Assembly: GCA_965218425.1 (NCBI GenBank)
Contig: OZ244621.1
Span: 576,001 to 640,000, forward strand
Direction of reading: 5' to 3'
DNA from: an uncultured Candidatus Binatia bacterium
GTDB lineage: Bacteria > Desulfobacterota > Binatia > UBA9968 > CAXXLF01
DNA length: 64,000 nt
Shown: piece after piece, positions 6,119-32,123 of the stretch
How the letters are laid out: each line of letters starts with the position of its first letter
Numbering within the stretch: position 1 is the stretch's first letter
Notes under the pieces: generated by a model
Told to the model about the DNA's origin: nothing
Seen by the model: only the letters and a program-made list of their open reading frames with translations
The model's database searches: none
Made by a program: the position numbers and the translations under genes

Positions 6119-6640
6119 ATGGAACTGGATCCCAGCTCAGTCGTAACAAGGGAAATGCGAAGTTGGATTGGCCGTAAAACGCCGCCACGATCCATAGAAA
6201 AGAAGACCGCTTCCGACATTCGCCGTTACGTGGACGCCACGGGTGATACCAATCCTCTTTGGCTGAAGGACGATTACGCCGGCACCCATGGGTACCGAGG
6301 CCGCCTCCTCCCTCCCCTTCTCGTTGGCTGGGAACCATTTAGTATAAGAGGATCGGACGGTAAAGAGATCACCGAGGACATCGTAAAACGGATTCCTTTA
6401 CCGCCGGAATATACGGACGCGCGCAATGCCAACACGGAGATTGAATGGCTTAGGCCCGTGTACTTCGGCGAGCAGCTTCAGGCACAGACCTGTATCGTCG
6501 ATATTGTAGCCCGGCAGGGAAAATCAGGCATCGGCATTTATGTTACCCGCGAGGATCGGATCTTAGACAGCAACAGCGAAATCGTTCTCAAGCGCCAGCA
6601 GACAACGGTTCGTTTTCCGAGGAAGGACAAGCCGGAATAA
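6119..6640 (+). CDS. MaoC-like hotdog-fold dehydratase, N-terminal-type subunit
   Basis: DIRRYVDATGDTNPLW and EIEWLRPVYFGEQL. Confidence 0.85.
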   Translation: MELDPSSVVTREMRSWIGRKTPPRSIEKKTASDIRRYVDATGDTNPLWLKDDYAGTHGYRGRLLPPLLVGWEPFSIRGSDGKEITEDIVKRIPLPPEYTDARNANTEIEWLRPVYFGEQLQAQTCIVDIVARQGKSGIGIYVTREDRILDSNSEIVLKRQQTTVRFPRKDKPE

Positions 6641-6652
6641 CGAGTATTTGCC

Positions 6653-7099
6653 ATGGAACAGGCTGGCTTTGAACAGACCCGACTGGGGGACCAAATACCC
6701 GAACGAGAGTTTGGGCCCCTTACCATCCAGGACACGGTCCGATGGGCGGGGTTTCAGGAAAACTCCGCACAACTTCATTATGACCGCGAACACGCCAGGA
6801 GCCATAGTGGCCTTAAGACCTTTATTGCCAGTGGAGAATACCGCCAGGCCCTTTTGATGCGTGTGCTCACAGACTGGATAGGCCCACGAGGGATGATCCG
6901 AAAGTTAAACCTGCGCCAGACGTTTCCCACCTATGAAGGGGACCTCATGCGTTTTTCCGCAAAGGTGATTGAGAAATCCGCCAATGCATCGGACCCTTGG
7001 ATTGTCTGTGAGCTGATAGGGAAAAATCAAGAAGACCGTCAGATACTCACGGGTCGATGTGCTCTGATGCTTTCCAAGCGTTCTCAAATAACGTCATGA
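6653..7099 (+). CDS. MaoC family hotdog-fold dehydratase subunit
   Basis: LHYDREHA...LTDWIGPRG...PTYEGD. Adjacent to the preceding MaoC gene. Confidence 0.85.
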   Translation: MEQAGFEQTRLGDQIPEREFGPLTIQDTVRWAGFQENSAQLHYDREHARSHSGLKTFIASGEYRQALLMRVLTDWIGPRGMIRKLNLRQTFPTYEGDLMRFSAKVIEKSANASDPWIVCELIGKNQEDRQILTGRCALMLSKRSQITS

Positions 7100-11061: not shown

Positions 11062-12219
11062 TCACAACAACCGATCGTCGTAGGGCATATCCGCCATCTT
11101 GACGGCGCCGTCGTCCGTAATCAGGACCTGTTCCTCTAACTTCACGGCGACATCATCCCCCTCTTCACCGATAAAGCAATCCACCGACAGGACCTGACCC
11201 TTCTTGATGGTGTCATCCACGTCTTTTTGATTTTTCATGATACTGGGATACTCGCCTGGTGTGAGTCCGTTGGAGTGAGCGATGTGAAAAGAGTAAAGCA
11301 ATTTGTGAAACTTCTCTGGTACCGGTGGTAGTTTTGACTTGAATTCCGCGATGGGAAGCCCCGGCCTGAGCAAACCGATGACGCCGTTAATGTACTCGTG
11401 GGCGCGCCGGTATCGATCGCGTTGCTTGTCCGATCCCTTGGCGCCACAGAGATAAGTGCGAGATGAGTCGAAGATATAACCGCAGGGACCGTAAACGTGG
11501 AGGTCCAGGCCTGCCAGGTCGCCGTCCTTGAGTTTCCGTTCGGTGGGCCAACGGCGCCACGGGTTCATATTTTCACCCGAGCAAACGTTTATTTGCAAAA
11601 GGCCTTCGGCACCCAGCTCCACAACCCGGGAATAAATGAGGCTGATGAGATCCTCTTCACTTACCCCTGGGGCAAGTTCGTCCCGGAAGGTACGCATGAC
11701 ACTGCTGTAAATCTTGGCCACCTCTTTATAGATGAGTATCTCGTCTTTGGTTTTTACCGTCTTGGAGGGCTCGATGAGTTTTTCGGCGCTCACCAAGGGC
11801 ATCTCGTGATGGCTGAGGGCCATAAACGCTATGGGATCCAAGGTATCAATGCCGAGCTTTTTCCCGGCCACGCCAAACTCCGTCATGAGGTCCTTTAGCT
11901 TATCGGCCCACTTCAAGGCCTTTTGATCCGCTTCGGCGTCTGAGGGGTCCACTCGATAGATAATGGGGCGGACATCCGAATGGGAGAGTTTTACGTACCC
12001 TTCGTCCATGGATCTCACAAAGGCGATGGGTTCGCCCTGTGCAGGTACGAACGCCGTGCCCCCGGGGATGCGCAGGTTCAGCACATACCTCACGTTGATC
12101 CTGTCAGTAAGGAACATGCCACCCACATTTTCCCGCCGCATCACATCCTGGAGATTGCGCACACGATCCCGCTTGAGACGTTGGTCATCCCAGGTTTTCT
12201 CCACTGCGTTCGAGCCCAT
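11062..12219 (-). CDS. M24 (pita-bread fold) protein, DddP-like subgroup
   Basis: SGENMNPW, GPCGYIFDSSRTY, HSNGL, EYP and IGEEG..VKLEEQVLIT. Confidence 0.85.
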   Translation of the reverse strand: MGSNAVEKTWDDQRLKRDRVRNLQDVMRRENVGGMFLTDRINVRYVLNLRIPGGTAFVPAQGEPIAFVRSMDEGYVKLSHSDVRPIIYRVDPSDAEADQKALKWADKLKDLMTEFGVAGKKLGIDTLDPIAFMALSHHEMPLVSAEKLIEPSKTVKTKDEILIYKEVAKIYSSVMRTFRDELAPGVSEEDLISLIYSRVVELGAEGLLQINVCSGENMNPWRRWPTERKLKDGDLAGLDLHVYGPCGYIFDSSRTYLCGAKGSDKQRDRYRRAHEYINGVIGLLRPGLPIAEFKSKLPPVPEKFHKLLYSFHIAHSNGLTPGEYPSIMKNQKDVDDTIKKGQVLSVDCFIGEEGDDVAVKLEEQVLITDDGAVKMADMPYDDRLL

Positions 12220-12421: not shown

Positions 12422-13333
12422 ATGAAAATCCTTCGCTTTAACGATGACAGGATTGGAATCTCAAAGGACGGTAATTCGGTGGCGGACGTCAGTGACGTCA
12501 TAAGCCACAGGACGGAGAAAGGTCCTAATCGAGCCATGGAAGAGTTCATCGAGAGGCTCGGCTCAGGCCGTAGCGAGATCGAGCAGGCCGCAGCGCGGGG
12601 AAAGACGGTCCCGTTGAGCAGCGTGAAACTGCTGGCACCCATCCCGCGACCCAGCAAGGTGCTCGCCGCATTCGTCAACTACCTGGACAGGGCAGGCGCA
12701 GAGCCTGGGAACGTACCCATTGAATTCTTCTACAAGTCCCCTGAGCTGTTGGGACCGCAAGGAACGATTATCATCCCCGACATTCCCCCGGTGACTGTGT
12801 TCCAGCCGGAGGCGGAGCTTGGTTTTGTCGTGGGGAAAAGGGGCAAAGACGTGGCCGAGTCCGCCGCCATGGATTACGTCCTTGGCTACATGCCGTTTGT
12901 CGACGTTTCGTCCCGCGGCATGGTTCGCCGAACTCAGTTCCTAGGCAAAGGGCTGGACACATGGGGACCTTGCGGTCCCTGGATCACCACCGCAGACGAA
13001 GTCGGTGATCCCCACACCCTCCAGGTCAAATCCTGGGTCAACGGGAAGCCGCGCCAGGATTACAACACAAAGGACATGGCTCAGAAAATTCCGAAACTCA
13101 TCGCCTGGGCGACCCGCTTTGTCACCCTCTATCCCGGCGATGTGATTACCACGGGCACCTTTCACGAAGGCCTAGGCCCCATCAATGACGGGGATGTGCT
13201 GGAAATCGAGGTGGAGAAGCTGGGACGGGCAAAGTTTTTCACCAAAGGGTATGGCGAGCGAAAGGAAGGAAACTGGGCGCCCCCCATTCCCCAGCCTGGA
13301 CAAAGGACCGGGCCCGGGATGAGCCGGGTTTAA
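12422..13333 (+). CDS. Fumarylacetoacetate hydrolase family protein
   Basis: FQPEAELGFVVG, DVSSR, GKGLDTWGPCGPW and LYPGDVITTGT. GGAGG RBS before ATG 12422. Confidence 0.92.
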   Translation: MKILRFNDDRIGISKDGNSVADVSDVISHRTEKGPNRAMEEFIERLGSGRSEIEQAAARGKTVPLSSVKLLAPIPRPSKVLAAFVNYLDRAGAEPGNVPIEFFYKSPELLGPQGTIIIPDIPPVTVFQPEAELGFVVGKRGKDVAESAAMDYVLGYMPFVDVSSRGMVRRTQFLGKGLDTWGPCGPWITTADEVGDPHTLQVKSWVNGKPRQDYNTKDMAQKIPKLIAWATRFVTLYPGDVITTGTFHEGLGPINDGDVLEIEVEKLGRAKFFTKGYGERKEGNWAPPIPQPGQRTGPGMSRV

Positions 13334-13343
13334 AACTGCCAAA

Positions 13344-13390
13344 GCAAACCACCGGGGAATACCCAACCGGGTAACCAACCGGTGGTTTGC
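13344..13390. terminator. Long hairpin between convergent genes (terminator or stabilising stem)
   Basis: GCAAACCACCGG pairs with CCGGTGGTTTGC, with an inner TACCC/GGGTA stem. No clear U-tract. Confidence 0.5.
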
Positions 13391-13420
13391 CAATCTTCAC
13401 CTATCTGTCAGGCTGAACGA

Positions 13421-14512
13421 TCAAACGTTGATGACTGCCCCCATATTGACGGGGGTTCCCCGCTTCGCGCACTCAGCGAGGAAGATCTCTTTCACCTCAG
13501 CCATCACTTCGGGCGGGATATCTTCGTAGTTCATCTGGTTCCCACCTCGTTTTGTACTTCTCATGGTATAGAAAGTACTTCGGTCCACTTTATTGGTCCG
13601 GCTGCTGAGCTTCAGGGCCAAATGCTCCGCCGGGCCCTTGCTGATGACGCAGTGCTGGTGCCACCACCAGTTGGGAGGTACGATCATGGTCCCTGGCCCC
13701 CAATACTCCTTGGTCTTATTCTGCTCCCCTCCATCCGGCCACATCAGGGAATAGCCGTCCCCTTTCAACCAGATCACATGGGCGCCGGGCCCATGGCGAT
13801 GGAGTTTGCTGAAAGTGCCGCCGGGGAGCTCTACGATATGCGCCCCGAGGACGCCGTTGGCCATTTCAAAGGAGTATCCTCGTGAATCAACACCGCGATT
13901 GGATTCCTGCAACTCGAGATTGTAAATGTCGGCAAAAAAATTGCTGAAGCTGATGTCCACGGGAATGTCCCAGAGATCAAATTGCTCTTTTCTGATCTTG
14001 CTGGAGAAATAGTTTTCCTCACTGTTGAATCGTTCGGGAAAGACCGCATCGTTGTTAAAGATAAAGTCATCGTTTCGCACCAGGTTCATCATGATGGGTG
14101 CCGTAGTTACCGCCAGATACCGAGCCGGTTCCGTCCCCGATCCATTGAAGTGTTGATAGTGACAATTGAGCGGTATGGCAAAGAGGCTCCCAGCCTGCCA
14201 TTCGAAGAAATTCTTTTTCTTTGGATCCACCCACACGCTGGTGCTACCGCGGCCGCTGAGGATAAAAAGCATCTCTTCGTATACATGGCGCTGCGGTTTC
14301 AATTCACCCCCCACCGGGATCTCGCAGATGTAGGCGCTGTTCATCTCGCCGGTGCCGTCCAGTTGGATCTGCACCGCCTTGCCGCCAGTACGGTCCCAAT
14401 CTTTGAGGGGTTCGGTATAGACATTGTCGATCTTGGCGCCCCGGACCAGATCCAAGCCTTCCTTTTCCACCCACTCGTCATAGTACAAACAGTTCCATTT
14501 CATCTCCGCCAT
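13421..14512 (-). CDS. Bicupin protein, paralog 1
   Basis: N-cupin QRHVYEE...YQHFNG; C-cupin LHRHGPGAH...PPNWWWHQH. Confidence 0.88.
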   Translation of the reverse strand: MAEMKWNCLYYDEWVEKEGLDLVRGAKIDNVYTEPLKDWDRTGGKAVQIQLDGTGEMNSAYICEIPVGGELKPQRHVYEEMLFILSGRGSTSVWVDPKKKNFFEWQAGSLFAIPLNCHYQHFNGSGTEPARYLAVTTAPIMMNLVRNDDFIFNNDAVFPERFNSEENYFSSKIRKEQFDLWDIPVDISFSNFFADIYNLELQESNRGVDSRGYSFEMANGVLGAHIVELPGGTFSKLHRHGPGAHVIWLKGDGYSLMWPDGGEQNKTKEYWGPGTMIVPPNWWWHQHCVISKGPAEHLALKLSSRTNKVDRSTFYTMRSTKRGGNQMNYEDIPPEVMAEVKEIFLAECAKRGTPVNMGAVINV

Positions 14513-14584
14513 TTTAAGTCCTCCTAGACCAAGTCTCGCTTATCCAAGGTAAATTTCTCGTTAAAGAATCAAAGCAGGGACCGT

Positions 14585-15667
14585 TCACATGTCCACCACC
14601 GCGTCATTGATGGGGGTGCCTCGTTTTTCACATTCTTGAGCAAAGAGCTCCTTGAGCTCCGCCATCAACTCGGGGGGAGTATCTTCATAGTTCATCTGAT
14701 TTCCGCCTCGCTTGGTGCTCTTCAGGGTGTTCATGCTGTTTCGGTTAACTTTATTTGTCTTGCTGCTGAGCTTCAACGCTAGATGCCGGGCGGGCTCTTT
14801 GCTCACAATGCAGTGTTGATGCCACCACCAGTCGGGTGGAACCACCATCATGCCTTTCTTCCAGTTTTCTCTGATTTTCTCCCCTCCGTCGGGCCACATG
14901 ATGGTGTAGCCTTCTCCCATCAACCAGATGACATGGGCCCCCGGCCCGTGACGGTGCACCTTGCTGAAGGTGCCGCCGGGAATCTCCAGGAGGTGGCACC
15001 CCAGGACTCCGTTCGCCAACTCAAAATTGTAACCCCGGGTATCCACGCCGCGATTCCACTCCTGCAACTTCACATTGTAAACGTCGGCATAGAAGTTGCT
15101 GAAGTTAACGTTCAGGGGCATGTCCCACAAGGTAAAGAGCTCTGTCTTTATCTTGCCGGAAAAATAATTATCCTCACCCTGGTAACGCTCGGGAAAGACG
15201 GCATCATTGTCAAAAATAAAATCCTCGTTGCGCATGAGGTTCATCATGATGGGTGCTGTAGTCACGGCCAGATAGCGCGCAGGCTCGGAACCGGAACCGT
15301 TGAAATGTTGATAGCGGGCATTTAGCGGAATGGCGAAGAGGCTTCCCGCCTGCCATTCGAAACTGTTTTTGTGCCGCTCATCGTACCAAACGGTGGTGCT
15401 ACCGCGGCCGCTCAGGATAAAAACCATCTCCTCGTACATGTGCTTCTGCGGCGACAACTGCTTCTTGGGAGCAATCTCGCAAATATAGGCCGCGTTCAAC
15501 TCCCCGGTCCCCTGAAGTTGGATCTGGACCGCGTTACCCCCGGTGCGCGCCCATGGCTTCAGGGGTTGGGTAAAGACATCGTCAACCTTGTGGCCACGGA
15601 TGAGATCCAGGCCTTCACCTTTCACCCATTCATCATAATACAGGCAGTTCCACTTCATCTCAGCCAT
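14585..15667 (-). CDS. Bicupin protein, paralog 2 (tandem duplicate of paralog 1)
   Basis: Same start, MAEMKWNCLYYDEWV; motifs VHRHGPGAH and PPDWWWHQH. Confidence 0.88.
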   Translation of the reverse strand: MAEMKWNCLYYDEWVKGEGLDLIRGHKVDDVFTQPLKPWARTGGNAVQIQLQGTGELNAAYICEIAPKKQLSPQKHMYEEMVFILSGRGSTTVWYDERHKNSFEWQAGSLFAIPLNARYQHFNGSGSEPARYLAVTTAPIMMNLMRNEDFIFDNDAVFPERYQGEDNYFSGKIKTELFTLWDMPLNVNFSNFYADVYNVKLQEWNRGVDTRGYNFELANGVLGCHLLEIPGGTFSKVHRHGPGAHVIWLMGEGYTIMWPDGGEKIRENWKKGMMVVPPDWWWHQHCIVSKEPARHLALKLSSKTNKVNRNSMNTLKSTKRGGNQMNYEDTPPELMAELKELFAQECEKRGTPINDAVVDM

Positions 15668-15745
15668 TCGAGCTTCTCCCTCAATACTGCTTCCCGAGCT
15701 TGCATCACCTGGGGGGGCATACAAGGTTTTTTCTGCCGTCTGGAC

Positions 15746-16882
15746 CTATGCCGATTTTTTAAACTCGGGCATATCCGGTGTGATGCCTTTCTTGGCCAGT
15801 GTGGCCTCGAATCGGGTGCGTACCTGTGGATCTTCATCCTCATACTCCAGCAAGGTCCCGCCCTTCTTGATGGAGGTCAGGGTCCCGTCATCGAAGCGCT
15901 TGCCGGCCAGGGCGAATCCCATAGGGTACACCCTTCCGCCGTAGCGAACCGCCAAATGCCGCGCCGGCCCAGCCCCCGTGTTAAAGTGCTGGTGGAACCA
16001 GTTCGCCGGTGGGCAGTATACGCTTCCAGCCTTCCATTCGATCTGATGCACTTTATCCCCGTGACCGCTGGTATAGGGTTGGGGTCCCAGTTCATTGGGC
16101 CAGAGAAGGACGTAACCCTCGGACTGCAAACCGAGCAGAATAGCCCCTGACCCATGATAGTGGGCCTTATGATACCGCCCTATGGGCCAATGGGAGATAT
16201 GCCCGATCAGTGAGTTTCCTCCAATCTGGAACTGGGTGATCCTGACCGCCGCTCCCTTGCTCTCTTCAGACTCCAATTTCGCGGTGCCCACATCGGGAAT
16301 AAAGTTGGTCTCCCAGACATGGGTCATGCCGGTCTCGTAAATCTTATTGGTGACATTGAAATAGCCGTCTTCCCCGGCATATCGATCGGCAAATACCATG
16401 GGACAGTTGAAAACGAACTCGGGTGTGCGGTAGAGGTCTATGACTAGCGGGGCGTTCGTTACCGCCAAAAACTTCACCGGCTCGCGTCCGCCGTTCACCA
16501 ATCGGTGCCAGGTATTCAACGGGTTGGCAAAGACACTCAAAGGACCCCATTCAAACAGATGCTTTTTTCCATCTGATCCTTCCTGCCACACCTCCGTGGC
16601 ACCATTTCCGTCCAAGATACAAATAACCTCTTCAAACATATGCTTTTCAGGTTCCAAGGCGCCTCCCGGAGGGATCTCGGCCACATACATGCCCGTAATA
16701 CCTTCCTGCCCATAGAGATGGATAAAGCTCCCTTTTCCCCCGGTACGCTTCCAAGGTTGCAGTTTTAAGTCCCGCACATCCGAAAGGGCGTAGCCTTCCA
16801 CCATTGGAATTCCCTCAGCCTTCGCCCACTTGAAATACGCTGTCTTCTGCAGTGAAACCATCAATTTATCGAAGTCACCCAT
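15746..16882 (-). CDS. Bicupin protein, paralog 3
   Basis: EKHMFEE, WHRLVNG, KAHYHGSGA and PPANWFHQHFN. Confidence 0.88.
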   Translation of the reverse strand: MGDFDKLMVSLQKTAYFKWAKAEGIPMVEGYALSDVRDLKLQPWKRTGGKGSFIHLYGQEGITGMYVAEIPPGGALEPEKHMFEEVICILDGNGATEVWQEGSDGKKHLFEWGPLSVFANPLNTWHRLVNGGREPVKFLAVTNAPLVIDLYRTPEFVFNCPMVFADRYAGEDGYFNVTNKIYETGMTHVWETNFIPDVGTAKLESEESKGAAVRITQFQIGGNSLIGHISHWPIGRYHKAHYHGSGAILLGLQSEGYVLLWPNELGPQPYTSGHGDKVHQIEWKAGSVYCPPANWFHQHFNTGAGPARHLAVRYGGRVYPMGFALAGKRFDDGTLTSIKKGGTLLEYEDEDPQVRTRFEATLAKKGITPDMPEFKKSA

Positions 16883-17099
16883 TCTAGTCCCTCCTTAAAA
16901 TATTTATGATTCTTGGTTTAGACGCCCCACAGCCCCATCGTCACTCCAGACCTGTATATGCACAATATTTTAATTATTTTCAACCTTAGAAGTGGTACGC
17001 CATTGATGGACTTCATTGACAGTGTCCCCTTCCTTCGGGTATGGGTGGAGCAAATACCGGAAGTGATTGGGTTTTGCCCTTTTCTATGGGAGGACTTGG

Positions 17100-18305
17100 A
17101 TGATCGGCGGGGAACAAAACGAGCGCCTTTGCAGAACGGGACCGGGTAGTCCCTGCGGAGAACTGTTCCGCCGCTATTGGTTGCCTGTGTGTCTCTCTAA
17201 CCAGGTACCGGCAGAAGGGAAACCCTTGCAGGTCAAGGTCATGGGTGAAGACCTGGTTTTATTCCGCGATGACCGGGGATGTCCTGGCCTGCTAGGACTC
17301 AACTGTTCCCATCGTCTGACCTCCCTTGCCTATGGGCGGGTTGAAGATGGGGGAATCCGCTGTCCCTTCCACGGTTGGCTTTATGACCTGGAGGGCAAAT
17401 GCCTGGAGCAGCCTGCCGAACCCAATTCCAACGACAAAGACAAGGTTCGCCACCCCGCCTACCCCTGCCAGGAGCTCGGCGGTTTGATCTTCGCCTACCT
17501 GGGACCAAGGGACAAGATGCCGCTTTTGCCGAGGTATGAGACGCTGGTACGAGAGGATGGGAGTCGCAAAGTAGACTACTACCAGATCAACAGCAACTAT
17601 CTGCAAAACGTCGAAGGGGCCCTGGATACCTCCCACGCCTCATTCCTGCACATCGATAACTGGTCCAAGATGAAGCACAAGCTCGCCGCAATGCCCAAGC
17701 GAGAGATTCAATTCAAAGAAACCGAGTATGGAATCTGGCAAACCGCCACCTCTCATATCCAGGCAGCCACGAAAGGTGAATTGATCCCGGTTTTTGCGCA
17801 CTTTTTCATGCCCACCGGATTCATGAGAATACAGGAGAGCCGGTTTCAGAAAGGCCTGATCCAAAAGTTTCAATCGTGGTATGTCCCCATGGACGATACC
17901 CACACCAAACGATTCCAGGCGGCCTTCTCCCCTCTGTTGGAAAACGGCAAGCCCTACGAGTGGCCGCCGGCTGGGGATTTCATTCAGCCCGGACCCGAAA
18001 ACGACTACTTCAGAAACTATGCGGAAGTAGATACCCTTTCGGGCATCCCGCTCAGGACGTCTCAATCCGCCATCAAAGGCTTCCTTTGCCAGGACAACAT
18101 GGTCAACGAAACCCAGGGGGCCATTGTGGATCGCACCCGGGAGCATTTAGGGGCACTGGATAAAGTGTTGACGGCCATGCGGGTAATGATCCTACTAGCC
18201 ATCGAAGAAGTTCAGAAGGGTCGGGACCCAAAGCATATCATACGAGACGATCACAAAAATGAGATAGTCTATATTAGAGGGGATGAAGAGCAAGAACTCG
18301 CTTAA
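17100..18305 (+). CDS. Rieske oxygenase alpha subunit, LigXa/phthalate 4,5-dioxygenase-like
   Basis: RTGPGSPCGELFRRYW, CSH...CPFH, DTSHASFLH and QD...ETQG..DRTREHLG. GGGAGG RBS before ATG 17100. Confidence 0.92.
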   Translation: MIGGEQNERLCRTGPGSPCGELFRRYWLPVCLSNQVPAEGKPLQVKVMGEDLVLFRDDRGCPGLLGLNCSHRLTSLAYGRVEDGGIRCPFHGWLYDLEGKCLEQPAEPNSNDKDKVRHPAYPCQELGGLIFAYLGPRDKMPLLPRYETLVREDGSRKVDYYQINSNYLQNVEGALDTSHASFLHIDNWSKMKHKLAAMPKREIQFKETEYGIWQTATSHIQAATKGELIPVFAHFFMPTGFMRIQESRFQKGLIQKFQSWYVPMDDTHTKRFQAAFSPLLENGKPYEWPPAGDFIQPGPENDYFRNYAEVDTLSGIPLRTSQSAIKGFLCQDNMVNETQGAIVDRTREHLGALDKVLTAMRVMILLAIEEVQKGRDPKHIIRDDHKNEIVYIRGDEEQELA

Positions 18306-18348
18306 CCTGAACACCCTAATACTGTGAAGATTTAGAGAGGGCACAAAA

Positions 18349-19566
18349 ATGATCAAGGCAAGCGACCTTTCATGGAACGATGTGGTTCGCGTGGGGCCGG
18401 GTACCCTAGGCGGGCAATATCTACGCTCCTTCTGGTGGCCCGTGGCCTTGTCTGATGAGGTGAAAGACATTCCGGTGCCGGTCAAGATATTGGGAGAAGA
18501 GCTCGTGCTGTTCCGAGATCTCTCAGGGCATCTAGTGCTGCTGGACGCCCACTGTCCACACCGCAGAGCCTCGCTGGAGTATGGGAGAATTGAGGATCAA
18601 GGGATTCGGTGCGCCTACCACGGTTGGTACATCAGCCGCCAGGGAACGATCCTAGATCGGCCGGCAGAACCCATCAAGGCAACCGATCAGATCCGCCAGA
18701 ACTGGTACGTGGCCAAGGAGTTGGGCGGCTTTGTCTTCGGCTACCTGGGCCCTGATAAGGAAAGCCCGCCACCTCTTCCCCGGTATGACATCCTGGTACA
18801 GGATGGATTTCGAGTCGCGGAACGCGGAGACACCGAGTTGGGTAAAGCGTACAACTGCAATTGGCTGCAGGGCGTAGAAAACACCACGGACACCACCCAC
18901 CTGGCCTATTTGCATGGGATCTTCGATCGGTGCCCGGTTTTCAAGTCCATTGAGGGAGACTACGGGGTAAAAATCTACATCCTGGACGGGGGAAAAAGCC
19001 CCAACACGGTGCGATTGCGAAAGAGGTCCACGGTGCTCCCAACCATTAATCGAAAGTCCAGGGAGGAAACCGGGGCTAGGTCTACGGGAAGATCCAAGGG
19101 AACCATCCAGCAGGCCATATGGCTCATCCCCATTAACGATACCGAGTGCGGAGAGATGAGGTTGACGGTCTATCCTGAGGAGCCGCCGGAAAAACGGTAT
19201 TACGGAGCAGCCATGGATAAGGCCAAAGGCAGGGAGCGAAAGCCCTACGATCGGCGGTTCTATGGTGACATTCGGGGGAACGTTCCTTTGGAAGACAAGG
19301 CCATGGTGGAAAGCCAAGGACCCATCGTGGATCGAAGCTTGGAGCACACGGGATATGGTGATCGAGTGATTCTAATGCTGCGGAAAATGATCCGTGAGGG
19401 GATTGCCGATGTGGCCAATGGCCGAAGGCCCAAGGGCGTGTTGGAAAAGGAACTGACTCAGATCGATCTGGATATTGGAATTGAAGAGTTTGAGATCAAC
19501 AAATCTCCGGAGGTGGTAAGAGATCTCCTACCGGAACTCCAACACGACCTGAAGGAGGTTGGCTAA
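18349..19566 (+). CDS. Rieske oxygenase alpha subunit, LigXa/phthalate 4,5-dioxygenase-like
   Basis: RVGPGTLGG, CPH...CAYH, DTTHLAYLH and EDKAMVESQG. Confidence 0.92.
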   Translation: MIKASDLSWNDVVRVGPGTLGGQYLRSFWWPVALSDEVKDIPVPVKILGEELVLFRDLSGHLVLLDAHCPHRRASLEYGRIEDQGIRCAYHGWYISRQGTILDRPAEPIKATDQIRQNWYVAKELGGFVFGYLGPDKESPPPLPRYDILVQDGFRVAERGDTELGKAYNCNWLQGVENTTDTTHLAYLHGIFDRCPVFKSIEGDYGVKIYILDGGKSPNTVRLRKRSTVLPTINRKSREETGARSTGRSKGTIQQAIWLIPINDTECGEMRLTVYPEEPPEKRYYGAAMDKAKGRERKPYDRRFYGDIRGNVPLEDKAMVESQGPIVDRSLEHTGYGDRVILMLRKMIREGIADVANGRRPKGVLEKELTQIDLDIGIEEFEINKSPEVVRDLLPELQHDLKEVG

Positions 19567-19593
19567 TTTATTGATCGGCCAACCCCTGCAACT

Positions 19594-20445
19594 ATGATGA
19601 TTCCATCTGAGCACATTGGCTTCATCGGTTTAGGCAATATGGGAGGGGCTATCGCGCTACGTCTATTGCGGGCCGGTTACCGGATGACAGTCCTTGATTT
19701 GGACAATCAAAAGATGGCGCCGCTCCTCAAAGAGGGAGCTTCGCGGGCCTCATCGCCTAAGGAAATAGCCCGGAAATCCAATGTAATTTTAGCTTCGCTG
19801 CAAGCAGATTCCGTAGCAGAAGTGGCCTGTGGTGCCGATGGCATCGCGGCAGGCGGAAAGGCTGGCATGGTTTTCGTGGACCTAAGCAGCACCCCTCCTG
19901 AATTGGCAATCAGGGTCTCCAACGACTTACGGAGTCGAGGGATCGAAATGCTGGATGCACCCGTGAGCGGAGCCGACATCGGCGCCACCAACGGCAACCT
20001 CACCATCTTCGTGGGAGGAAGCTACGAAGCCTACCAACGGTCTCTACCCGTGCTCCAACAGGTGGGGCGCATGGTCACCTACCTTGGAAAGAACGGGAAC
20101 GGACAGTTAGGCAAGCGCATCAATCAAATGATGCAGGCCATGAGTGAGCTGGCGATCCATGAAGGGCTTCAGTTGGCAAAGGAAATGAATTTGCCCCTGA
20201 AAATGTTCGCCCGTGCAGCCTCCGCCGGCTGCGCCCAAACCTGGCGATTGGATGAACTCGTGGATGGCGTGTTTAATCAAGGCGAGACAAAGTACAAACT
20301 CAAGCTTCGCCCAGGTCGGACAGGTACCGCCCTTAAGATGGCAAAGGAAGTGGGGATCACTCTACCCGGGGTCGAGGCTGCACACCGGGTTTTTTCCGAT
20401 CACCAGTGGCGGATCGAGATCGATTTCGAGGAAAAAGACTCCTAG
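19594..20445 (+). CDS. Beta-hydroxyacid (3-hydroxyisobutyrate/tartronate semialdehyde reductase family) dehydrogenase
   Basis: IGFIGLGNMG, LDAPVSG and catalytic Lys in GQLGKRINQ. Confidence 0.88.
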   Translation: MMIPSEHIGFIGLGNMGGAIALRLLRAGYRMTVLDLDNQKMAPLLKEGASRASSPKEIARKSNVILASLQADSVAEVACGADGIAAGGKAGMVFVDLSSTPPELAIRVSNDLRSRGIEMLDAPVSGADIGATNGNLTIFVGGSYEAYQRSLPVLQQVGRMVTYLGKNGNGQLGKRINQMMQAMSELAIHEGLQLAKEMNLPLKMFARAASAGCAQTWRLDELVDGVFNQGETKYKLKLRPGRTGTALKMAKEVGITLPGVEAAHRVFSDHQWRIEIDFEEKDS

Positions 20446-20455
20446 ATAATTCCGC

Positions 20456-21559
20456 TCAGGCGGATTTTTTTCGGATCCCCTTGAGTACTTCATCCATGTG
20501 GCTAGGGGCGCCGATCTTTGCCAACTCCGCCTCAAAAATCCTACGAATCTCCGGGCTCTCGTCTTCATACTCCAGCTGGCTCCCACCCGCTTTCACGTCT
20601 TCTGAAGTACCAAACTGTTTTTTCAGACCCGGGTATTTTCTGCTGGTAAAGGGCTTCAATGCCAGATAACGAGCGGACTCGGCACCCTTATTAAAGTGCT
20701 GGTGATACCACATCTCGGGAGGGACAAATAGGCTCATGTCGTGCCAGTCGTATCTCTTGAAGTTGTCCCCTTCCGGCCACATCATGGAATACCCTTCCCC
20801 CCTAAGCACGATGACATGGGCGCCGGCACCATGGCGATGGGCTTTCTTGTAGGTGCCCACGGGAAATTCCGATATATGAGCCGACATGACGTTATTGGCG
20901 ATCTCTAGCATGATACCCATGCCCCCTGCACCACGGGCGCTTTGGTCTTTCAATTGGAACGCTTTAACATCCTGAATGAAATTACTTTCCCAGAACCTCT
21001 CTGCGAGAAACTTGCCCTTGCCGCTAAAGAAATCATCCTCGCCGGTGTAACGGTCCTTGAAAACATAACCACAATTAAAAATAAAATCCTGGTTATGAAA
21101 CAGGTTCATCACCGTGGGGGCATCGGTCATGCCCAAGAGTCTTACGGACTGGTCCCCCTGGCCGTTGAAGTGCTGGTATGAGGCGTTTAGTGGAGGCGAA
21201 AAGAGGCTCCCCTCTTGCCACTCAAAGGTTTGCTTTTTTCGTTCGTCCGTCCAAACCGTTGTGGCCCCGCGTCCACTCACAACGAAGACCAGTTCTTCAA
21301 ACATATGCTTTTGCGGCTTGGTTGACTTGCCCGGTGGAATCTCCAGAAGATAGCTATCATTGACCCCTTCGCTCCCCTCCAGATTCAGGTAGGCACCCAT
21401 GGCACCCATCCGCTTCCAGGGAGCCAGTTCCACCTTACGCACGTCCTGGATAAAAAACCCTCCAACAACTGGTAGATTCTCCTCTTGTAGAAATTGGGCA
21501 TAAGCGCTGATGCATCCAAGCTCGTTTCCCCTTACCTGTTCAACTGCTGCAGTCGCCAT
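20456..21559 (-). CDS. Bicupin protein, paralog 4
   Basis: QKHMFEE, YQHFNG, KAHRHGAGAH and PPEMWYHQHFN. GGAGG RBS before ATG 21559. Confidence 0.88.
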   Translation of the reverse strand: MATAAVEQVRGNELGCISAYAQFLQEENLPVVGGFFIQDVRKVELAPWKRMGAMGAYLNLEGSEGVNDSYLLEIPPGKSTKPQKHMFEELVFVVSGRGATTVWTDERKKQTFEWQEGSLFSPPLNASYQHFNGQGDQSVRLLGMTDAPTVMNLFHNQDFIFNCGYVFKDRYTGEDDFFSGKGKFLAERFWESNFIQDVKAFQLKDQSARGAGGMGIMLEIANNVMSAHISEFPVGTYKKAHRHGAGAHVIVLRGEGYSMMWPEGDNFKRYDWHDMSLFVPPEMWYHQHFNKGAESARYLALKPFTSRKYPGLKKQFGTSEDVKAGGSQLEYEDESPEIRRIFEAELAKIGAPSHMDEVLKGIRKKSA

Positions 21560-21990: not shown

Positions 21991-22737
21991 TTAATAGGCG
22001 GGAAGCGATCTGCCGGCATCCAGGGGTAATAGAACGCCGGTGATGTTCCTGGCATCCTGCGAGGTTAAAAACAAAACGGCGGCGCCCACGTCTTCAGGCG
22101 TATGGAGTCTCTTAAGCACCGCGTCCTCCTGAAGCTGCTTGAGCTGCTCCGGTCTCTGCCGGATGGGTGCGGTGAGAGTCGGTCCAACCAGGACCGCATT
22201 GACCCTGATATTTTGATGCCCGTGGTCGGAAGCCATGGCTACCGTAAGGGCGTTCATCGCCGCCTTGCTCGCGGATCGAAGGGCTCGACCTTTAACTCCC
22301 GAGCCGGCAATGGAAGATAGGTTAACGATGGCACCCCCACCCCCATTGGCCATTACGGGGATTGCCGCGCGGGAAAGAGTGATGAGACCTTTGAGATCCG
22401 CTGTCATCTCCTCATCAAAATCTTTTTCCGAGATGTCCATCACCGAGCCCACCACACGCCGAGCGGCCCCGTAGTTCACCAAAATATCGATCCGGCCATA
22501 CTGCCCAACCGTATTTTTGACGATGGATTCCGCATCCTCTGGGCGGCTCACTTCTCCTGCCAATAGCCTGCAGTTTCCTCCCAAGGCCTCGATTGAGCGA
22601 AGGGTCTCCTGCGCCTGCTCCGACGCTTTGTAACATCCAGCAACCTTGGATCCTTCGCGAGCAAGAGCTTCAGCAATGGCCCCCCCTATTTCGGAATCAA
22701 CACCGGTGACCAGGGATACCTTGTTTTCTAATCTCAT
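21991..22737 (-). CDS. Short-chain dehydrogenase/reductase with atypical active site
   Basis: LENKVSLVTG, GRIDILVN, NIRVNAV and ITGVLLPLDAG. YxxxK reads RSASK. Confidence 0.88.
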   Translation of the reverse strand: MRLENKVSLVTGVDSEIGGAIAEALAREGSKVAGCYKASEQAQETLRSIEALGGNCRLLAGEVSRPEDAESIVKNTVGQYGRIDILVNYGAARRVVGSVMDISEKDFDEEMTADLKGLITLSRAAIPVMANGGGGAIVNLSSIAGSGVKGRALRSASKAAMNALTVAMASDHGHQNIRVNAVLVGPTLTAPIRQRPEQLKQLQEDAVLKRLHTPEDVGAAVLFLTSQDARNITGVLLPLDAGRSLPAY

Positions 22738-22770
22738 AAGGTTTGTCCTCTTATATGATTGACGTTCACC

Positions 22771-25023
22771 TCAATAGGAGGCCCTTCGCCGGTTGAGAGC
22801 CTCGGCGATCTTTTCGGGTGTAATCGGAGCGTCCATGATTCTCACACCCGTGGCATTGTACACGGCATTGGCTATGGCTGGAGCTATGACACTGATGCCG
22901 CATTCGGCGACTGCCTTGGTACCGAAAGGTCCCGGTCCGGCATTTGCGATCACATGGGACGTGGCCAATCTTGGGACGTCACGAATGTTGGGAATCTTGT
23001 AGTCGCCCAAATGAAGAGTTGTGATCCGACCGTCATCCACCTCCAGGCCTTCCATTAGGCTAAAGCCCACACCTTGCATTATTCCACCGTCGATCTGTCC
23101 CTGATGGATAATGGGGTTTATAATTTTCGTCACGTCAATGACAAAATAGATCCGCTCAGGCCTTACCTGGCCGGTCTCTGAGTCAACTTCCACGTCAACC
23201 ACCACGGCATAGAAAGAATACAGATCGGAGGCCCCATCCTTGCAATATCCAACTCCTTTAAGTGAAGCTTCCCCAGATTGGCCTGCCAGCTCCTGTAGAG
23301 TCAAGAATCTTTTTGTTGAGCCCGTAACCCACGCTCGACCTCTTTCCCACCGCACTCTATCAACCTCAACCTTCCAGATGGCGGCGGCCAAATTACGCAA
23401 CTGGTCGATCATGGACTCGGCAGCCCAGGCTACTGCCCGCCCTTCAATGTGCACTCCCCTCTGCGCTCGTATTCCCTCGTCGTAGACCCCGCCGTCGGTG
23501 CCCTGGAGGTCGATTTGAACCATGTCCGGATCCACGCCCATGGCTTCCGCCGCCACCTGCTTGTGCATCGTGTGGGCACCCACCCCCACATCCCGAACCG
23601 AAGTTACCAATCGCAGGGAGCCATCGGGTTGGAGAAAAAGTTCCGCCGAGGATTCACCCGGTCCAATGTGGTGGTTTCCCATGCTCAAACCACATCCCAT
23701 AAGAACATGGGACCGATCCTTGGACCGACGAGGTTTAGTCTTGCGCCATCGCGTGAGTTCGGCAACTCGCTCGAGAACCTCCCGGCCCTGGGGATCACGC
23801 AGAGGTCGTTCACTGGGCTGACTGTCACCTTCCTGGAGAACGTTGCGCAAGCGGAACTCCAGAGGATCCATCCCCAGCTTCTCCGCCATCATGTCCATGT
23901 GGCTCTCGACGGCAAACAGAGACTGCACCTCTCCTGGCGCTCTAAAATAGCCGCAGGGGACCTGATTGGTGTAGACGATCAATCCCTCCATGCGCACGTG
24001 AGGCGTGCGATAGGAGCCTGCCAGCATGAATGTCCCGGTCATGGCGTTTTGCGGATTACGCGACCCGTAAGCACCCCCGTTGTAGACGATTTGGCCATCC
24101 CAGGCCCACAATCGTCCGTCGCTCTTCACACCGGTACGGAGTTTGACCACACCCGCATGCCGGGGTTCGCCGTCCAAAAGGTCTTCCGAATAATGATTCA
24201 CAACCTTGACCGGCTTACCGGTGGCCCGGGCCAGATAATAGATGTAAAGGACATCGTCGTAGCCCAATTTCCCCCCGAAGGAACCCCCAGTCGATACGGG
24301 ATGGACCACGATCCTCTCTTCGGGGATATCCGTATGGGCGGCTAGCCATCTGCGAACGAGGAAGGGCGCTTGATGGCAATGCCAGACAGAGACCCGGCCC
24401 TGGGAATCCAACTCTACGACGCCGGCTCGAGGTTCAATATAACCCTGATGAACCATCTGGGTGCGGAAGGTATTCTCAAAGATATGGTCCGATTCTTTGA
24501 AACCTTCTTCGATGTTGCCCTTGTTCGACCGGTGAGCGGATCGCACGTTTCGGAACGAAGGCTCTTTGAAAGGACCCTTATAGCTCTCGTAATCGGGATG
24601 GAGAATGGGAGAGTCCGGTGCCATGGCCTCAAAGGGGTCGAATACAGCCGGTAGCTCCTCGTAGTCCACCGCAATGAGCTGCAAAGCCTCCTCGAGGGTT
24701 TCCCGATCCACCGCTGCGACACCCGCCACCTTTTCACCGATATAGCGTACCCGGTCCCTGGCAAATATGGGTTGGTCCCGCAGAGCAAACCCCTCGAGCC
24801 GTTCAGATACATCACCAGCGGTGAGCACCACCGCCACGCCGTTCAGTTTCTGGGCCTTGCTCACATCAACATTCAAGATGCGGGCATGGGGGTATGGACT
24901 CCGCAGGAACCCTCCCCAGAGAGCGCCCGGGCGGTGGATGTCCGCCGAATACCGGCAAGACCCGGTCACTTTACTAACTCCCTCCACACGGGCAATAGCT
25001 TGTCCGAGCACTGTTTTCTTCAT
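22771..25023 (-). CDS. Xanthine dehydrogenase/CoxL-family molybdopterin-binding large subunit
   Basis: LRSPYPHARI, GGSFGGK, FRAPG, GQIDGG and GPFGTKAVAE. Confidence 0.93.
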   Translation of the reverse strand: MKKTVLGQAIARVEGVSKVTGSCRYSADIHRPGALWGGFLRSPYPHARILNVDVSKAQKLNGVAVVLTAGDVSERLEGFALRDQPIFARDRVRYIGEKVAGVAAVDRETLEEALQLIAVDYEELPAVFDPFEAMAPDSPILHPDYESYKGPFKEPSFRNVRSAHRSNKGNIEEGFKESDHIFENTFRTQMVHQGYIEPRAGVVELDSQGRVSVWHCHQAPFLVRRWLAAHTDIPEERIVVHPVSTGGSFGGKLGYDDVLYIYYLARATGKPVKVVNHYSEDLLDGEPRHAGVVKLRTGVKSDGRLWAWDGQIVYNGGAYGSRNPQNAMTGTFMLAGSYRTPHVRMEGLIVYTNQVPCGYFRAPGEVQSLFAVESHMDMMAEKLGMDPLEFRLRNVLQEGDSQPSERPLRDPQGREVLERVAELTRWRKTKPRRSKDRSHVLMGCGLSMGNHHIGPGESSAELFLQPDGSLRLVTSVRDVGVGAHTMHKQVAAEAMGVDPDMVQIDLQGTDGGVYDEGIRAQRGVHIEGRAVAWAAESMIDQLRNLAAAIWKVEVDRVRWERGRAWVTGSTKRFLTLQELAGQSGEASLKGVGYCKDGASDLYSFYAVVVDVEVDSETGQVRPERIYFVIDVTKIINPIIHQGQIDGGIMQGVGFSLMEGLEVDDGRITTLHLGDYKIPNIRDVPRLATSHVIANAGPGPFGTKAVAECGISVIAPAIANAVYNATGVRIMDAPITPEKIAEALNRRRASY

Positions 25024-29496: not shown

Positions 29497-30951
29497 ATGG
29501 GTTGGTATGATTTTCGTGCGCTGTTGGCCGAGTTTGAACGACGCGGAGATGTCACGCATGTTGAGGGAGCCGATTGTCACCTGGAAATCGGGACCTTGAC
29601 CGAACTCATGGCCGAACGGAATGGTCCCATGCTGCTCTTTGACCGAATAAAAGGCTATCCAAATGGCTATCGAATTGCTGCCAAACCCTATTCGACGCCG
29701 GCACGGGGCGCGGTTGCCTTGGGCCTTCCGCAAGACGTGTCTCCGTTTGAAATGTTCATGGCCTGGCGAGACAAATTCAAGAGTTATCAGCCCATCAAAC
29801 CGGTGCAGGTTTCGTCAGCCCCGGTGATGGAAAACGTCCTGGAGGGTTCCGCCATCGATTTCCAAAAGTTTCCTATCCCCAGATGGCACGAGCAAGACGG
29901 CGGTCTGTACATAGGGACCGGTTGTGCCATCGTCACAAAAGATCCGGATGAGGGATGGGTCAACGTGGGTACCTACCGTGTCATGGTGCATGACAATCAG
30001 ACCCTCGGTTTTCAGATAGCCCCCTATCATCATGGTAATCTAATGATGAAAAAATATTGGTCGCAGGGAAAGAACTGTCCTATCGCATTGGCGATATCGC
30101 CGGATCCGTATCTCTTTTGGGCTTCCACCAGCGGAGCCCCATGGGCCACTTCGGAGTATGAACTGGCAGGTTTCATCAAGGGAGAGGCCGAACCCATCAT
30201 GACCGGACCGAGAACGGGACTCCCCTTGCCTGCCAATGCGGAAATGATCATTGAAGGCGAGGTCCCTCCCCTCACCGAAGAGCAGAGAATCGAAGGGCCC
30301 TTCGGCGAATACACCGGCTACTACGCGGGTGGAGAAAGAATGAGGCCGGTTATTCGGGTTCGGGCGCTGTACCATCGCAACAATCCAGTCTTTCACGGCG
30401 AGCCTCCCATGAAACCGCCTGTCGAGAATTGGGCATGCCTCCCTTCCGGGAGTATCCTCGCGGTTTGGGAGGGACTCGAACGGTCAGGCGTGCCGGGGGT
30501 CAAGGGAGTTTATTCCCTCAACGCGGGTGGCGGCCTTGTCACAGTGGTGTCGGTGAAACAGCAATATTCGGGGCACGCAAGGCAGGTGGGTAGGGTTGCC
30601 TCTGGACTGATGCACAGTATGTGCCGGCTCATGGTGGTAGTCGATGATGATATCGATCCCTCCAATTCCGGCGAGGTCCTCTGGGCCATCGCCACGCGGA
30701 GCGACCCGGGAACGACTTTCGAAATTCAGCGGGATTGTCCCTCCACCTGGCTTGATCCGATGATGCCACCGGAGCAGAAGAATCGTGGTGAGCTAAAGGC
30801 CAGCCGCGCTTTGATCGTTGCCTGCCGCCCCTGGGAATGGATGAAGGACTTCCCAGCGGTGAGCCGGGCCAGTGATGAACTGAGGAATCGAACCTACCAG
30901 AAGTGGAAGGATCTTTTCAAGCACGAAGCAAAAAAACCCGTCGGCTGGTAA
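29497..30951 (+). CDS. UbiD family decarboxylase, copy 2
   Basis: GTYRVMVH, EGPFGEYTGYY and VVDDDIDP motifs. Confidence 0.93.
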   Translation: MGWYDFRALLAEFERRGDVTHVEGADCHLEIGTLTELMAERNGPMLLFDRIKGYPNGYRIAAKPYSTPARGAVALGLPQDVSPFEMFMAWRDKFKSYQPIKPVQVSSAPVMENVLEGSAIDFQKFPIPRWHEQDGGLYIGTGCAIVTKDPDEGWVNVGTYRVMVHDNQTLGFQIAPYHHGNLMMKKYWSQGKNCPIALAISPDPYLFWASTSGAPWATSEYELAGFIKGEAEPIMTGPRTGLPLPANAEMIIEGEVPPLTEEQRIEGPFGEYTGYYAGGERMRPVIRVRALYHRNNPVFHGEPPMKPPVENWACLPSGSILAVWEGLERSGVPGVKGVYSLNAGGGLVTVVSVKQQYSGHARQVGRVASGLMHSMCRLMVVVDDDIDPSNSGEVLWAIATRSDPGTTFEIQRDCPSTWLDPMMPPEQKNRGELKASRALIVACRPWEWMKDFPAVSRASDELRNRTYQKWKDLFKHEAKKPVGW

Positions 30952-31000
30952 GTCAAAGAGTAGTCGGATTTAGCTCCGAGCGCGGGGTGAACTAACCGAA

Positions 31001-31957
31001 TTATGTCCAGTAGGCAAAGGCCATGCCACAGCCGGTTGCGGCTGGAGAACGGTAGGTTGGCACATAATCGATCAATTTCATCGGACTCCGTTCCATCACT
31101 CCTGCCAACGCCACCCAATTGAGAATCTCGGAAGTGCCCCCGCGCAGCTTCTCCCTCGGCAAACGGTACAGTCCTTCCTTATCCTGAGTCGTTAACGCCT
31201 TGATGGTTATCTGGTCCAAGTCCTCGTCGATAATGGTATGACTCAAGCCCCCAGAGGCGATCACGGCCACACGACTATCACCGTCCCAGGATTCGATGGC
31301 CTGGCGCACCGACTGTCCCAGAGCATAACACCGCCTGGGCGTCGGTTGGTTGGGCGGATAGTAGGTGTTCACCATCACCGGAACCATTGGCAGGTGACAC
31401 CCCGGCAGTATTCGGCGGTAAAGAAAACTGAATGCGTGTCCTACCCCGATCTCCTCGCGCAAACGATTGCAACGAGTTACATCAAATTCGTTATCCGCCA
31501 GCGCTTTGATCATGTGTTCCGCCAACTCTGAGCACCCGGGATACTCCGGCTCCGTTTCGGCCCAACCCTTTATTTCCTCAGCCTTCCAGTCGGATGTGTT
31601 TCGTCCCGAATGCCTTACCACCGGAATCGATTTACCGTGGTAGACGGCAAACGTCGGCATATTGTCGTCATAGAATTGTTCCTTCTGGTCGTCACCGAAA
31701 ATAACCACCACATCAGGGCGAGCCTCCTCTAGCATACGACCCAGCTCACCGATGGCCTTAAGGCAAGCGTCATCGCGCTCCTGCATCTTGCTTTGCGTAA
31801 GGTCCTGGTCAATTCCAGCCTTAGCGCGTTCAAGCAGTCCTCGGTAATCCATTCGTGGATCCCGCTCATCCTTTTCTCTCATCAAGGACCACCGCGTTGC
31901 TCGAACGCTCAACTGGGGGCTATGGGAGGTACCCAGCCCGAGAACAATTTTTGCCAT
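31001..31957 (-). CDS. LigB-superfamily extradiol dioxygenase, DesZ/LigZ-like
   Basis: MAKIVLGLGTSH, GDDQ, HAFSFLYRRI, VNTYYPPNQPTPRRCY, SGGLSH, GTSEILNW and DYVPTYRS. GGAGG RBS. Confidence 0.9.
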   Translation of the reverse strand: MAKIVLGLGTSHSPQLSVRATRWSLMREKDERDPRMDYRGLLERAKAGIDQDLTQSKMQERDDACLKAIGELGRMLEEARPDVVVIFGDDQKEQFYDDNMPTFAVYHGKSIPVVRHSGRNTSDWKAEEIKGWAETEPEYPGCSELAEHMIKALADNEFDVTRCNRLREEIGVGHAFSFLYRRILPGCHLPMVPVMVNTYYPPNQPTPRRCYALGQSVRQAIESWDGDSRVAVIASGGLSHTIIDEDLDQITIKALTTQDKEGLYRLPREKLRGGTSEILNWVALAGVMERSPMKLIDYVPTYRSPAATGCGMAFAYWT

Positions 31958-32123
31958 CTTTGAAAACCTCCTGCCATCGAAATGAGTGGAGCAACGGCCA
32001 ACCGAAGCCGGTCTCGAAGACACCCAATCTTGTCCGAGAACCGGAAAGTTGTCAATAGGAGTAGCGACGTCGACTGGTTAGCCTAATATAAACGTGGTAG
32101 GACCTTTACGGGTCGAATCCCAT

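Follow-up and report, generated by a model that had tools for sequence, protein, structure and literature searches.

Bicupins related to gentisate dioxygenases in Candidatus Binatia: an expanded family with a C-terminal histidine site and an EutA-like ATPase partner

The window analysed here is a 64,000-nucleotide stretch of contig OZ244621.1 (positions 576,001 to 640,000) from an uncultured Candidatus Binatia bacterium, and it holds four paralogous two-barrel cupins, or bicupins (P0001 to P0004), together with two Rieske oxygenase genes, a dehydrogenase gene and an FAH-family gene. The bicupins belong to a large family, related in fold to the 1,2-dioxygenases that act on gentisate (GDO) and salicylate (SDO), whose conserved histidine site lies in the C-terminal barrel and whose genuine partner, as seen in genome-level co-occurrence, is an EutA-like ATPase. 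Going by its motifs, the C-terminal site likely binds metal. What reaction do the bicupins carry out? It is likely that they help to break down aromatic acids, and we tentatively favour O2-dependent C-C bond cleavage. The substrates would be hydroxylated aromatic or N-heteroaromatic acids that the cell imports, gentisate and salicylate excepted, each paralog perhaps serving a different one. The interest lies in the family, the rebuilt site and the ATPase partner, rather than in the local four-gene arrangement.

Although many uncultured bacteria carry 20-60 copies of the family, none of its members was found to be characterised, as an earlier, sequence-only reading of the window had anticipated, and some database names are misleading. 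The reaction, once found, would account for a major, so far unassigned part of these organisms' aromatic-acid catabolism. It would also bring to light a novel architecture of the ring-cleavage site or else O2-free chemistry on the GDO fold, perhaps together with a new ATP-dependent way of loading metal. We found no paper on the family in the literature covered, subscription papers and bioRxiv supplements lying largely outside that coverage, and a search of the ESM Atlas gave unnamed cupin clusters only. One RNA run of low depth, in which DNA carry-over is possible, gave no evidence of expression (5% of words; 7 short records, 3 of them at 99% or above).

The C-terminal histidine site

In the AlphaFold model of P0004 (pLDDT 94.9, pTM 0.93), one of two aligners ranks GDO/SDO first by fold, though narrowly; the top Foldseek matches are MncA and vicilins. 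The best PDB match of the N-terminal barrel is auxin-binding protein 1. Like the GDO/SDO proteins of S. pomeroyi (3bu7), P. salicylatoxidans (2phd) and E. coli (2d40), the bicupins have the two-barrel fold, a three-His motif in which the cupin Glu has become Ala, and an equivalent of SDO His162. Unlike these proteins, with which they share 14-19% identity, they have the conserved site in the C-terminal barrel and an altered site in the N-terminal one. They also fall far under the family cut-offs, scoring 15-17 bits against 442 for TIGR02272 and 27-34 bits against 650 for MabB NF049978, with P0003 matching neither. Ureidoglycine aminohydrolase (4e2q), oxalate decarboxylase/MncA and BacB/AerE have Z scores below that of GDO and 10-16% identity to the bicupins. 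Non-oxygenase cupin metal sites generally include Glu.

The conserved site comprises five histidines, H228, H241, H243, H286 and H288 in P0004 numbering. The three-His motif is found in the C-terminal barrel of 95 of 108 diverse members, and Ala247 in 74 of them by sequence register; H288, the His162 equivalent, is present in all 57 paralogs compared and in 101 of the 108. By motif register, H241, H243 and H286 would be the metal ligands, and Ala247, standing in place of the cupin Glu, would leave coordination sites open as in GDO. H288 and H228, the latter an extra histidine at the position of SDO Gly106, would point into the pocket and act as acid/base groups or additional ligands. The corresponding N-terminal positions read E/Q-H-E-H/Y, and the first His occurs there in 3/108, so that this barrel has no three-His site. 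It may serve as a variable second site, and the E-H-E-H of P0003 is a possible second metal site.

Are the bicupins gentisate dioxygenases? With the residue register taken from PDB alignments, equivalents of Gln108, Arg127 and Asp174 are each found at the conserved site in 0/108 members, the family having Ser, Val/Leu/Ile and Ala instead, while a separate GDO-like clade in the same genome keeps all three in 7/7. Because these residues are absent, the family members are, on sequence grounds, not gentisate dioxygenases. Loss of Arg127 and Asp174 does not exclude ring cleavage, since 5-nitrosalicylate 1,2-dioxygenase (8ch4), a GDO-class cupin that cleaves rings, lacks both of them and His162 as well (PMC10306065). 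That enzyme is, however, a monocupin that retains the Gly106 and Gln108 missing from the bicupins, and it does not match the family profile.

According to the sequence-only reading, the C-terminal barrel of all four bicupins carries HxH...PPxxWxHQH and the N-terminal one xHxxEE; both motifs are there. Its interpretation, ring-cleaving dioxygenases with the active site in the opposite domain, is partly supported.

Family expansion, the EutA-like partner and a nickel lead

A profile of the four bicupins finds 59 full-length paralogs in the 4.46-Mb host genome, where a second method counts 63 matches. Each of the 20 relatives searched has the family, in 4-57 copies, against 0/60 in a sample of the phylum's other genomes. 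Among named homologues, the closest are from Ca. Binatia. Others come from records whose depositors named Alphaproteobacteria, Chloroflexota, Acidobacteria and several deltaproteobacterial groups, where a genome often has 20-29 copies. In a 50%-identity library, 705 clusters match with E values no higher than 1e-30, fragments counted, and four of 72,556 plasmid records have family members, two each.

The family is not the only one to have expanded: clustering, with Pfam labels of representatives, gives about 123 amidohydrolases, 78 LigXa-type Rieske oxygenases, 78 binding proteins, 71 UbiD, 23 LigB and 23 GDO-like bicupins in the host genome. Four bicupins beside two Rieske genes are thus to be expected here. 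The cluster is one case of genome-wide family expansion, and its arrangement, ordinary for this genome, adds little. Rieske matches of all kinds number at least 93, mostly oxygenase alpha subunits of 380-480 amino acids, yet no FNR-type reductase (PF00175) is matched in this 97% complete genome.

To what genes are the bicupins linked? Labels were shuffled 1000 times among 772 catabolic-island genes and counted within three genes of a bicupin; 30 families were tested and p values are uncorrected. Rieske genes occur near bicupins 15 times against 14.4 expected, FAH genes 3 against 1.0 (p 0.085, all three from this one locus), binding proteins 15 against 13.7, and LigB genes 10 against 4.7 (p 0.023). 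EutA-like genes lie directly adjacent to bicupins 5 times against 0.7 (p 0.002). Rieske- and FAH-specific linkage, enriched when all genes are the background, vanishes under this null. At 79 loci outside the host genome, some of which end at contig ends and all labelled by best BLAST match to host-genome proteins, we counted binding proteins at 20, Rieske at 18, EutA at 11, UbiD at 11, LigB at 3 and FAH at 1. The sequence-only reading had called for a test of co-occurrence with Rieske and FAH genes; once catabolic islands are allowed for, the family has no specific link to either. The local Rieske, FAH and dehydrogenase genes would belong to the same catabolic island without being dedicated partners of the bicupins.

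These counts bear on a pathway in which the bicupins, as gentisate- or salicylate-type 1,2-dioxygenases, act together with the two Rieske proteins of this locus and an FAH of the fumarylpyruvate-hydrolase type. Such a pathway would fit the GDO fold, the three-His motif and the order FAH-bicupin-Rieske, which is kept in two relatives. It is nonetheless highly improbable: besides the missing second shell, the low TIGR02272 scores and the intact GDO-like clade in the same genome, there are 6 FAH genes to 59 paralogs, FAH is near bicupins at a single host locus, and no maleylpyruvate isomerase, GST-type or other, was recognised among the 50 window proteins scanned.

Might the bicupins instead be non-catalytic ligand- or metal-binding proteins beside transporters, as cytoplasmic acceptors or metal stores? 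Binding proteins are their commonest neighbours outside the host, and the matches to auxin-binding protein 1, MncA and vicilins are in keeping with such a role. Binding proteins are however not enriched over the island null, and a near-invariant five-His motif amid positions that vary across paralogs resembles an enzyme site. We consider this role improbable.

It is with an EutA-like ATPase, not FAH, that the family travels. An EutA-like gene is present in 34/34 family-bearing genomes, chosen among the sources of the 79 outside loci from those with titles not naming Binatia, in 0/60 phylum genomes without a bicupin and in 1/14 controls, which is a pattern rather than a statistic, since related genomes are not independent. 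EutA itself (PF06277) is the reactivase of B12-dependent ethanolamine ammonia-lyase. The bicupin partners share the PF06277 match and, unlike EutA, fall under the NCBIfam EutA cut-offs, and many end in His/Asp-rich tails. Such tails resemble nickel chaperones. No EutA-like gene lies in the window, and the host genome has 9 against about 60 bicupins, so that a few ATPases may load or restore metal in many bicupins. Some bicupins bear the database name 'ethanolamine ammonia lyase-activating protein', which was likely carried over from the neighbouring gene, because the bicupins themselves have no EutA domain: the four studied here match Cupin_2 only in Pfam, and not the ASKHA ATPase domain PF06277.

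Compact clusters in cultured rhizobia (NZ_CP104971.1, about 441-481 kb, and NZ_CP121660.1), with two bicupin-EutA pairs, a Rieske system and nickel-uptake genes, make the family testable now in Phyllobacterium zundukense A18/3m and Sinorhizobium terangae CB3126. On the Phyllobacterium plasmid each of the two bicupins is followed by EutA, in a neighbourhood that encodes a LigXa-type Rieske oxygenase along with a ferredoxin and a reductase, as well as candidate decarboxylases, aldolases and transporters; NixA and NikR come directly after one pair. The matching Sinorhizobium cluster has a HupE/UreJ transporter, non-homologous to NixA. Searches of the plasmids, with the chromosomes not searched, gave no LigB or intradiol match in Phyllobacterium, one VOC match lying about 60 kb off, while the Sinorhizobium plasmid has three intradiol matches some 30-50 kb away from its cluster. 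The nickel-uptake genes of these two clusters are new here, as are the P0002-P0003 dimer prediction and the two-bicupin fusions described below.

In the host genome a NikR gene lies 12 kb from a bicupin-EutA pair. No match to NiFe hydrogenase, urease, LarA or the CODH family was found there (the search did not extend to Ni-SOD, glyoxalase I or acireductone dioxygenase), nor to a NicO-type transporter, and NixA and HupE queries match nothing in the 79 outside loci. A family member is near 2/18 NikR genes, several of them on short contigs, which is about chance level; among 21 relatives that all carry the family, 10 have NikR and 11 do not. We treat nickel as a lead and not as a result. A more far-reaching proposal would make these proteins a widespread class of Ni- or Co-dependent, GDO-descended bicupins, with the site moved to the other barrel and filled by an ATP-driven EutA-like insertase, dozens of paralogs per genome mixing as homo- and heterodimers that open or modify many different aromatic and N-heterocyclic acids in uncultured bacteria of soil, groundwater and the sea. 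This we regard as unlikely; were it true, it would mean a new class of nickel enzyme and a new metal-insertion machine.

Chemistry with or without O2

Does the rebuilt site use O2? We place O2-dependent cleavage barely ahead of O2-independent chemistry. By both fold and sequence GDO and SDO remain the closest relatives of the family, and the surroundings of the Phyllobacterium bicupins, with their LigXa-type Rieske system, also speak for oxygenase chemistry. A match to the heme-copper oxidase superfamily is present in 33/34 genomes and one to LigXa-type Rieske oxygenases in 26/34, and the family is missing from the other phylum genomes sampled. The oxidase superfamily also takes in NO reductases.

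The rival holds that the bicupins carry out Lewis-acid or acid-base chemistry (hydration, hydrolysis, isomerisation or decarboxylation), and that they do so at a His-rich site which the EutA-like ATPase fills with Ni, Co or Mn. Their substrates would be aromatic or N-heterocyclic acids taken up by the cell, or ring-fission products of these. It too is a tentative reading, and several observations weigh in its favour and against O2-dependent cleavage. Three genomes deposited as Chloroflexi, Syntrophales and Desulfobacterales (G094, G103 and G105) have 17, 13 and 20 copies of the family and no LigXa-type match, the first of them lacking an oxidase match as well. These are, however, metagenome-assembled genomes of unstated completeness. 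Their 20 loci show no Rieske, LigB or FAH gene, and have binding proteins at 8, UbiD at 4 and EutA at 3, the labels covering only families present in the host genome. The site has lost the GDO second shell and gained a histidine. LigB, itself a ring-cleavage enzyme, is often near bicupins; in the window P0004 and a LigB gene are 9.4 kb apart, and that gene is conserved together with the block. In the fold search, bicupins that are hydrolases or isomerases appear at ranks 7-20.

There is also precedent for a cupin hydratase that acts on an aromatic fission product, LumY of lumichrome catabolism (PMC12746152), which is a 16 kDa protein, unlike the bicupins. On that size LumY was rejected as a characterised member of the family. 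As to the metal, the nickel genes of the two rhizobial clusters, the His/Asp-rich tails of the EutA-like partners and a host genome with NikR but no match to the nickel enzymes searched for would suit O2-independent chemistry, though the link to nickel is patchy, and a nickel site is also compatible with a dioxygenase, as in Ni-quercetinase (PMC4019311).

The locus, subunit pairing and minor observations

An ORF and Pfam check confirmed the eight genes of the block with the positions, strands and divergent or convergent layout that had been read from the sequence (Table 1). By strand and spacing the block has at least three transcription units: the FAH gene converges on the bicupin triplet, and bicupin 4 comes after the short-chain dehydrogenase and Mo-enzyme genes on its own strand. 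The FAH gene has GGAGG before its ATG, is kept in two relatives (G061 and G062), and scores at best 127 bits in NCBIfam, below cut-offs of 276 and 500. The first Rieske gene starts at an ATG with GGGAGG, its longest ORF beginning at TTG 17067, and both Rieske proteins have intact Fe-S and mononuclear-iron His/Asp motifs. The dehydrogenase scores below the NCBIfam cut-off, and its gene is missing from the G062 copy. The block is syntenic in 2/20 relatives, one from the same genus and the other from the same family, where further duplications and insertions occur.

Table 1. Genes of the bicupin block and its context (window positions)
Feature	Position	Strand	Evidence or remarks
FAH-family hydrolase/decarboxylase, no subfamily call	12422..13333	+	PF01557, E 5.7e-50
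Bicupin 1 (P0001, 363 aa)	13421..14512	-	C-terminal five-His site; N-terminal Q-H-E-Y
Bicupin 2 (P0002, 360 aa)	14585..15667	-	C-terminal five-His site; N-terminal Q-H-E-Y
Bicupin 3 (P0003, 378 aa), HYH clade	15746..16882	-	C-terminal five-His site; N-terminal E-H-E-H
Rieske oxygenase alpha subunit, LigXa/phthalate-dioxygenase type	17100..18305	+	PF00355, PF19301
Second Rieske oxygenase alpha subunit, LigXa/phthalate-dioxygenase type	18349..19566	+	Pfam, motifs
3-Hydroxyisobutyrate/tartronate-semialdehyde-reductase family dehydrogenase	19594..20445	+	PF03446
Bicupin 4 (P0004, 367 aa)	20456..21559	-	H228, H241, H243, H286, H288; N-terminal Q83-H85-E89-Y128
Context: short-chain dehydrogenase and xanthine-dehydrogenase-type Mo subunit	21991..25023	-	Upstream of bicupin 4, its strand
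Context: UbiD-family decarboxylase (+), LigB-type ring-cleavage dioxygenase (-)	29497..32023		Conserved with block

P0001 and P0002 are 72-73% identical, the remaining pairs 36-46%, and the four local bicupins fall into three separate family clades. Do they assemble with one another? The predicted complex of P0003 with P0002 scores 0.85 against 0.00 for the best control, with contacts agreeing at 75% or more and partner pLDDT of at least 87. The mark for such scores is reached by 116/157 solved complexes and 2/215 mismatched pairs, counts that are only rough here, where our own alignments were used and iron was included; close cousins of true partners also pass. Because 26 of the 42 interface residues of one chain map to interface residues of the other, the interface is largely symmetric, and the prediction shows a family dimer interface and no preference for mixed pairs. 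Subunits would pair through the helix that links the barrels, and co-expressed paralogs could mix.

Three of seven long homologues (P0125-P0127; 709-730 amino acids, four barrels) are clean fusions of two bicupins in which both halves retain the C-terminal His motifs, and these lend modest support to paralogs working in pairs. Fusions with binding proteins (P0067, P0090) and other long forms (P0128-P0130) have junctions that resemble frameshift read-through and were not counted. Of the hetero-oligomers suggested earlier, obligatory local ones are unlikely, because only 10/59 paralogs adjoin another.

Elsewhere in the host genome, two family members are each in two fragments (G000:263378-264764 and G000:55722-58094), the second pair separated by an IS-type transposase gene, and one EutA-like gene (G000:1738881-1740155) is N-terminally short, covering model positions 48-474. 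A second uncharacterised bicupin clade, with at least five paralogs and HRH motifs in both barrels (e.g. L045:5001-6041), is nearer by profile to the four-bicupin family (99.6%) than the GDO-like clade is, and one of its members is directly followed by an EutA-like gene.

Within the window, a hotdog-fold dehydratase-like gene pair (6119-7099; PF13452, weak HadB match) heads an ABC transporter operon and is present in G061, not in the G062 block. An M24/creatinase-family protein (11062-12219), whose top NCBIfam match is the DMSP lyase DddP at 131 bits against a cut-off of 600, is divergent from the FAH gene and conserved with the block. A third Rieske gene (3416-4594; PF00355, PF11723), its longest ORF split in gene calling, has intact motifs, and homologues occupy the corresponding position in G061 and G062.

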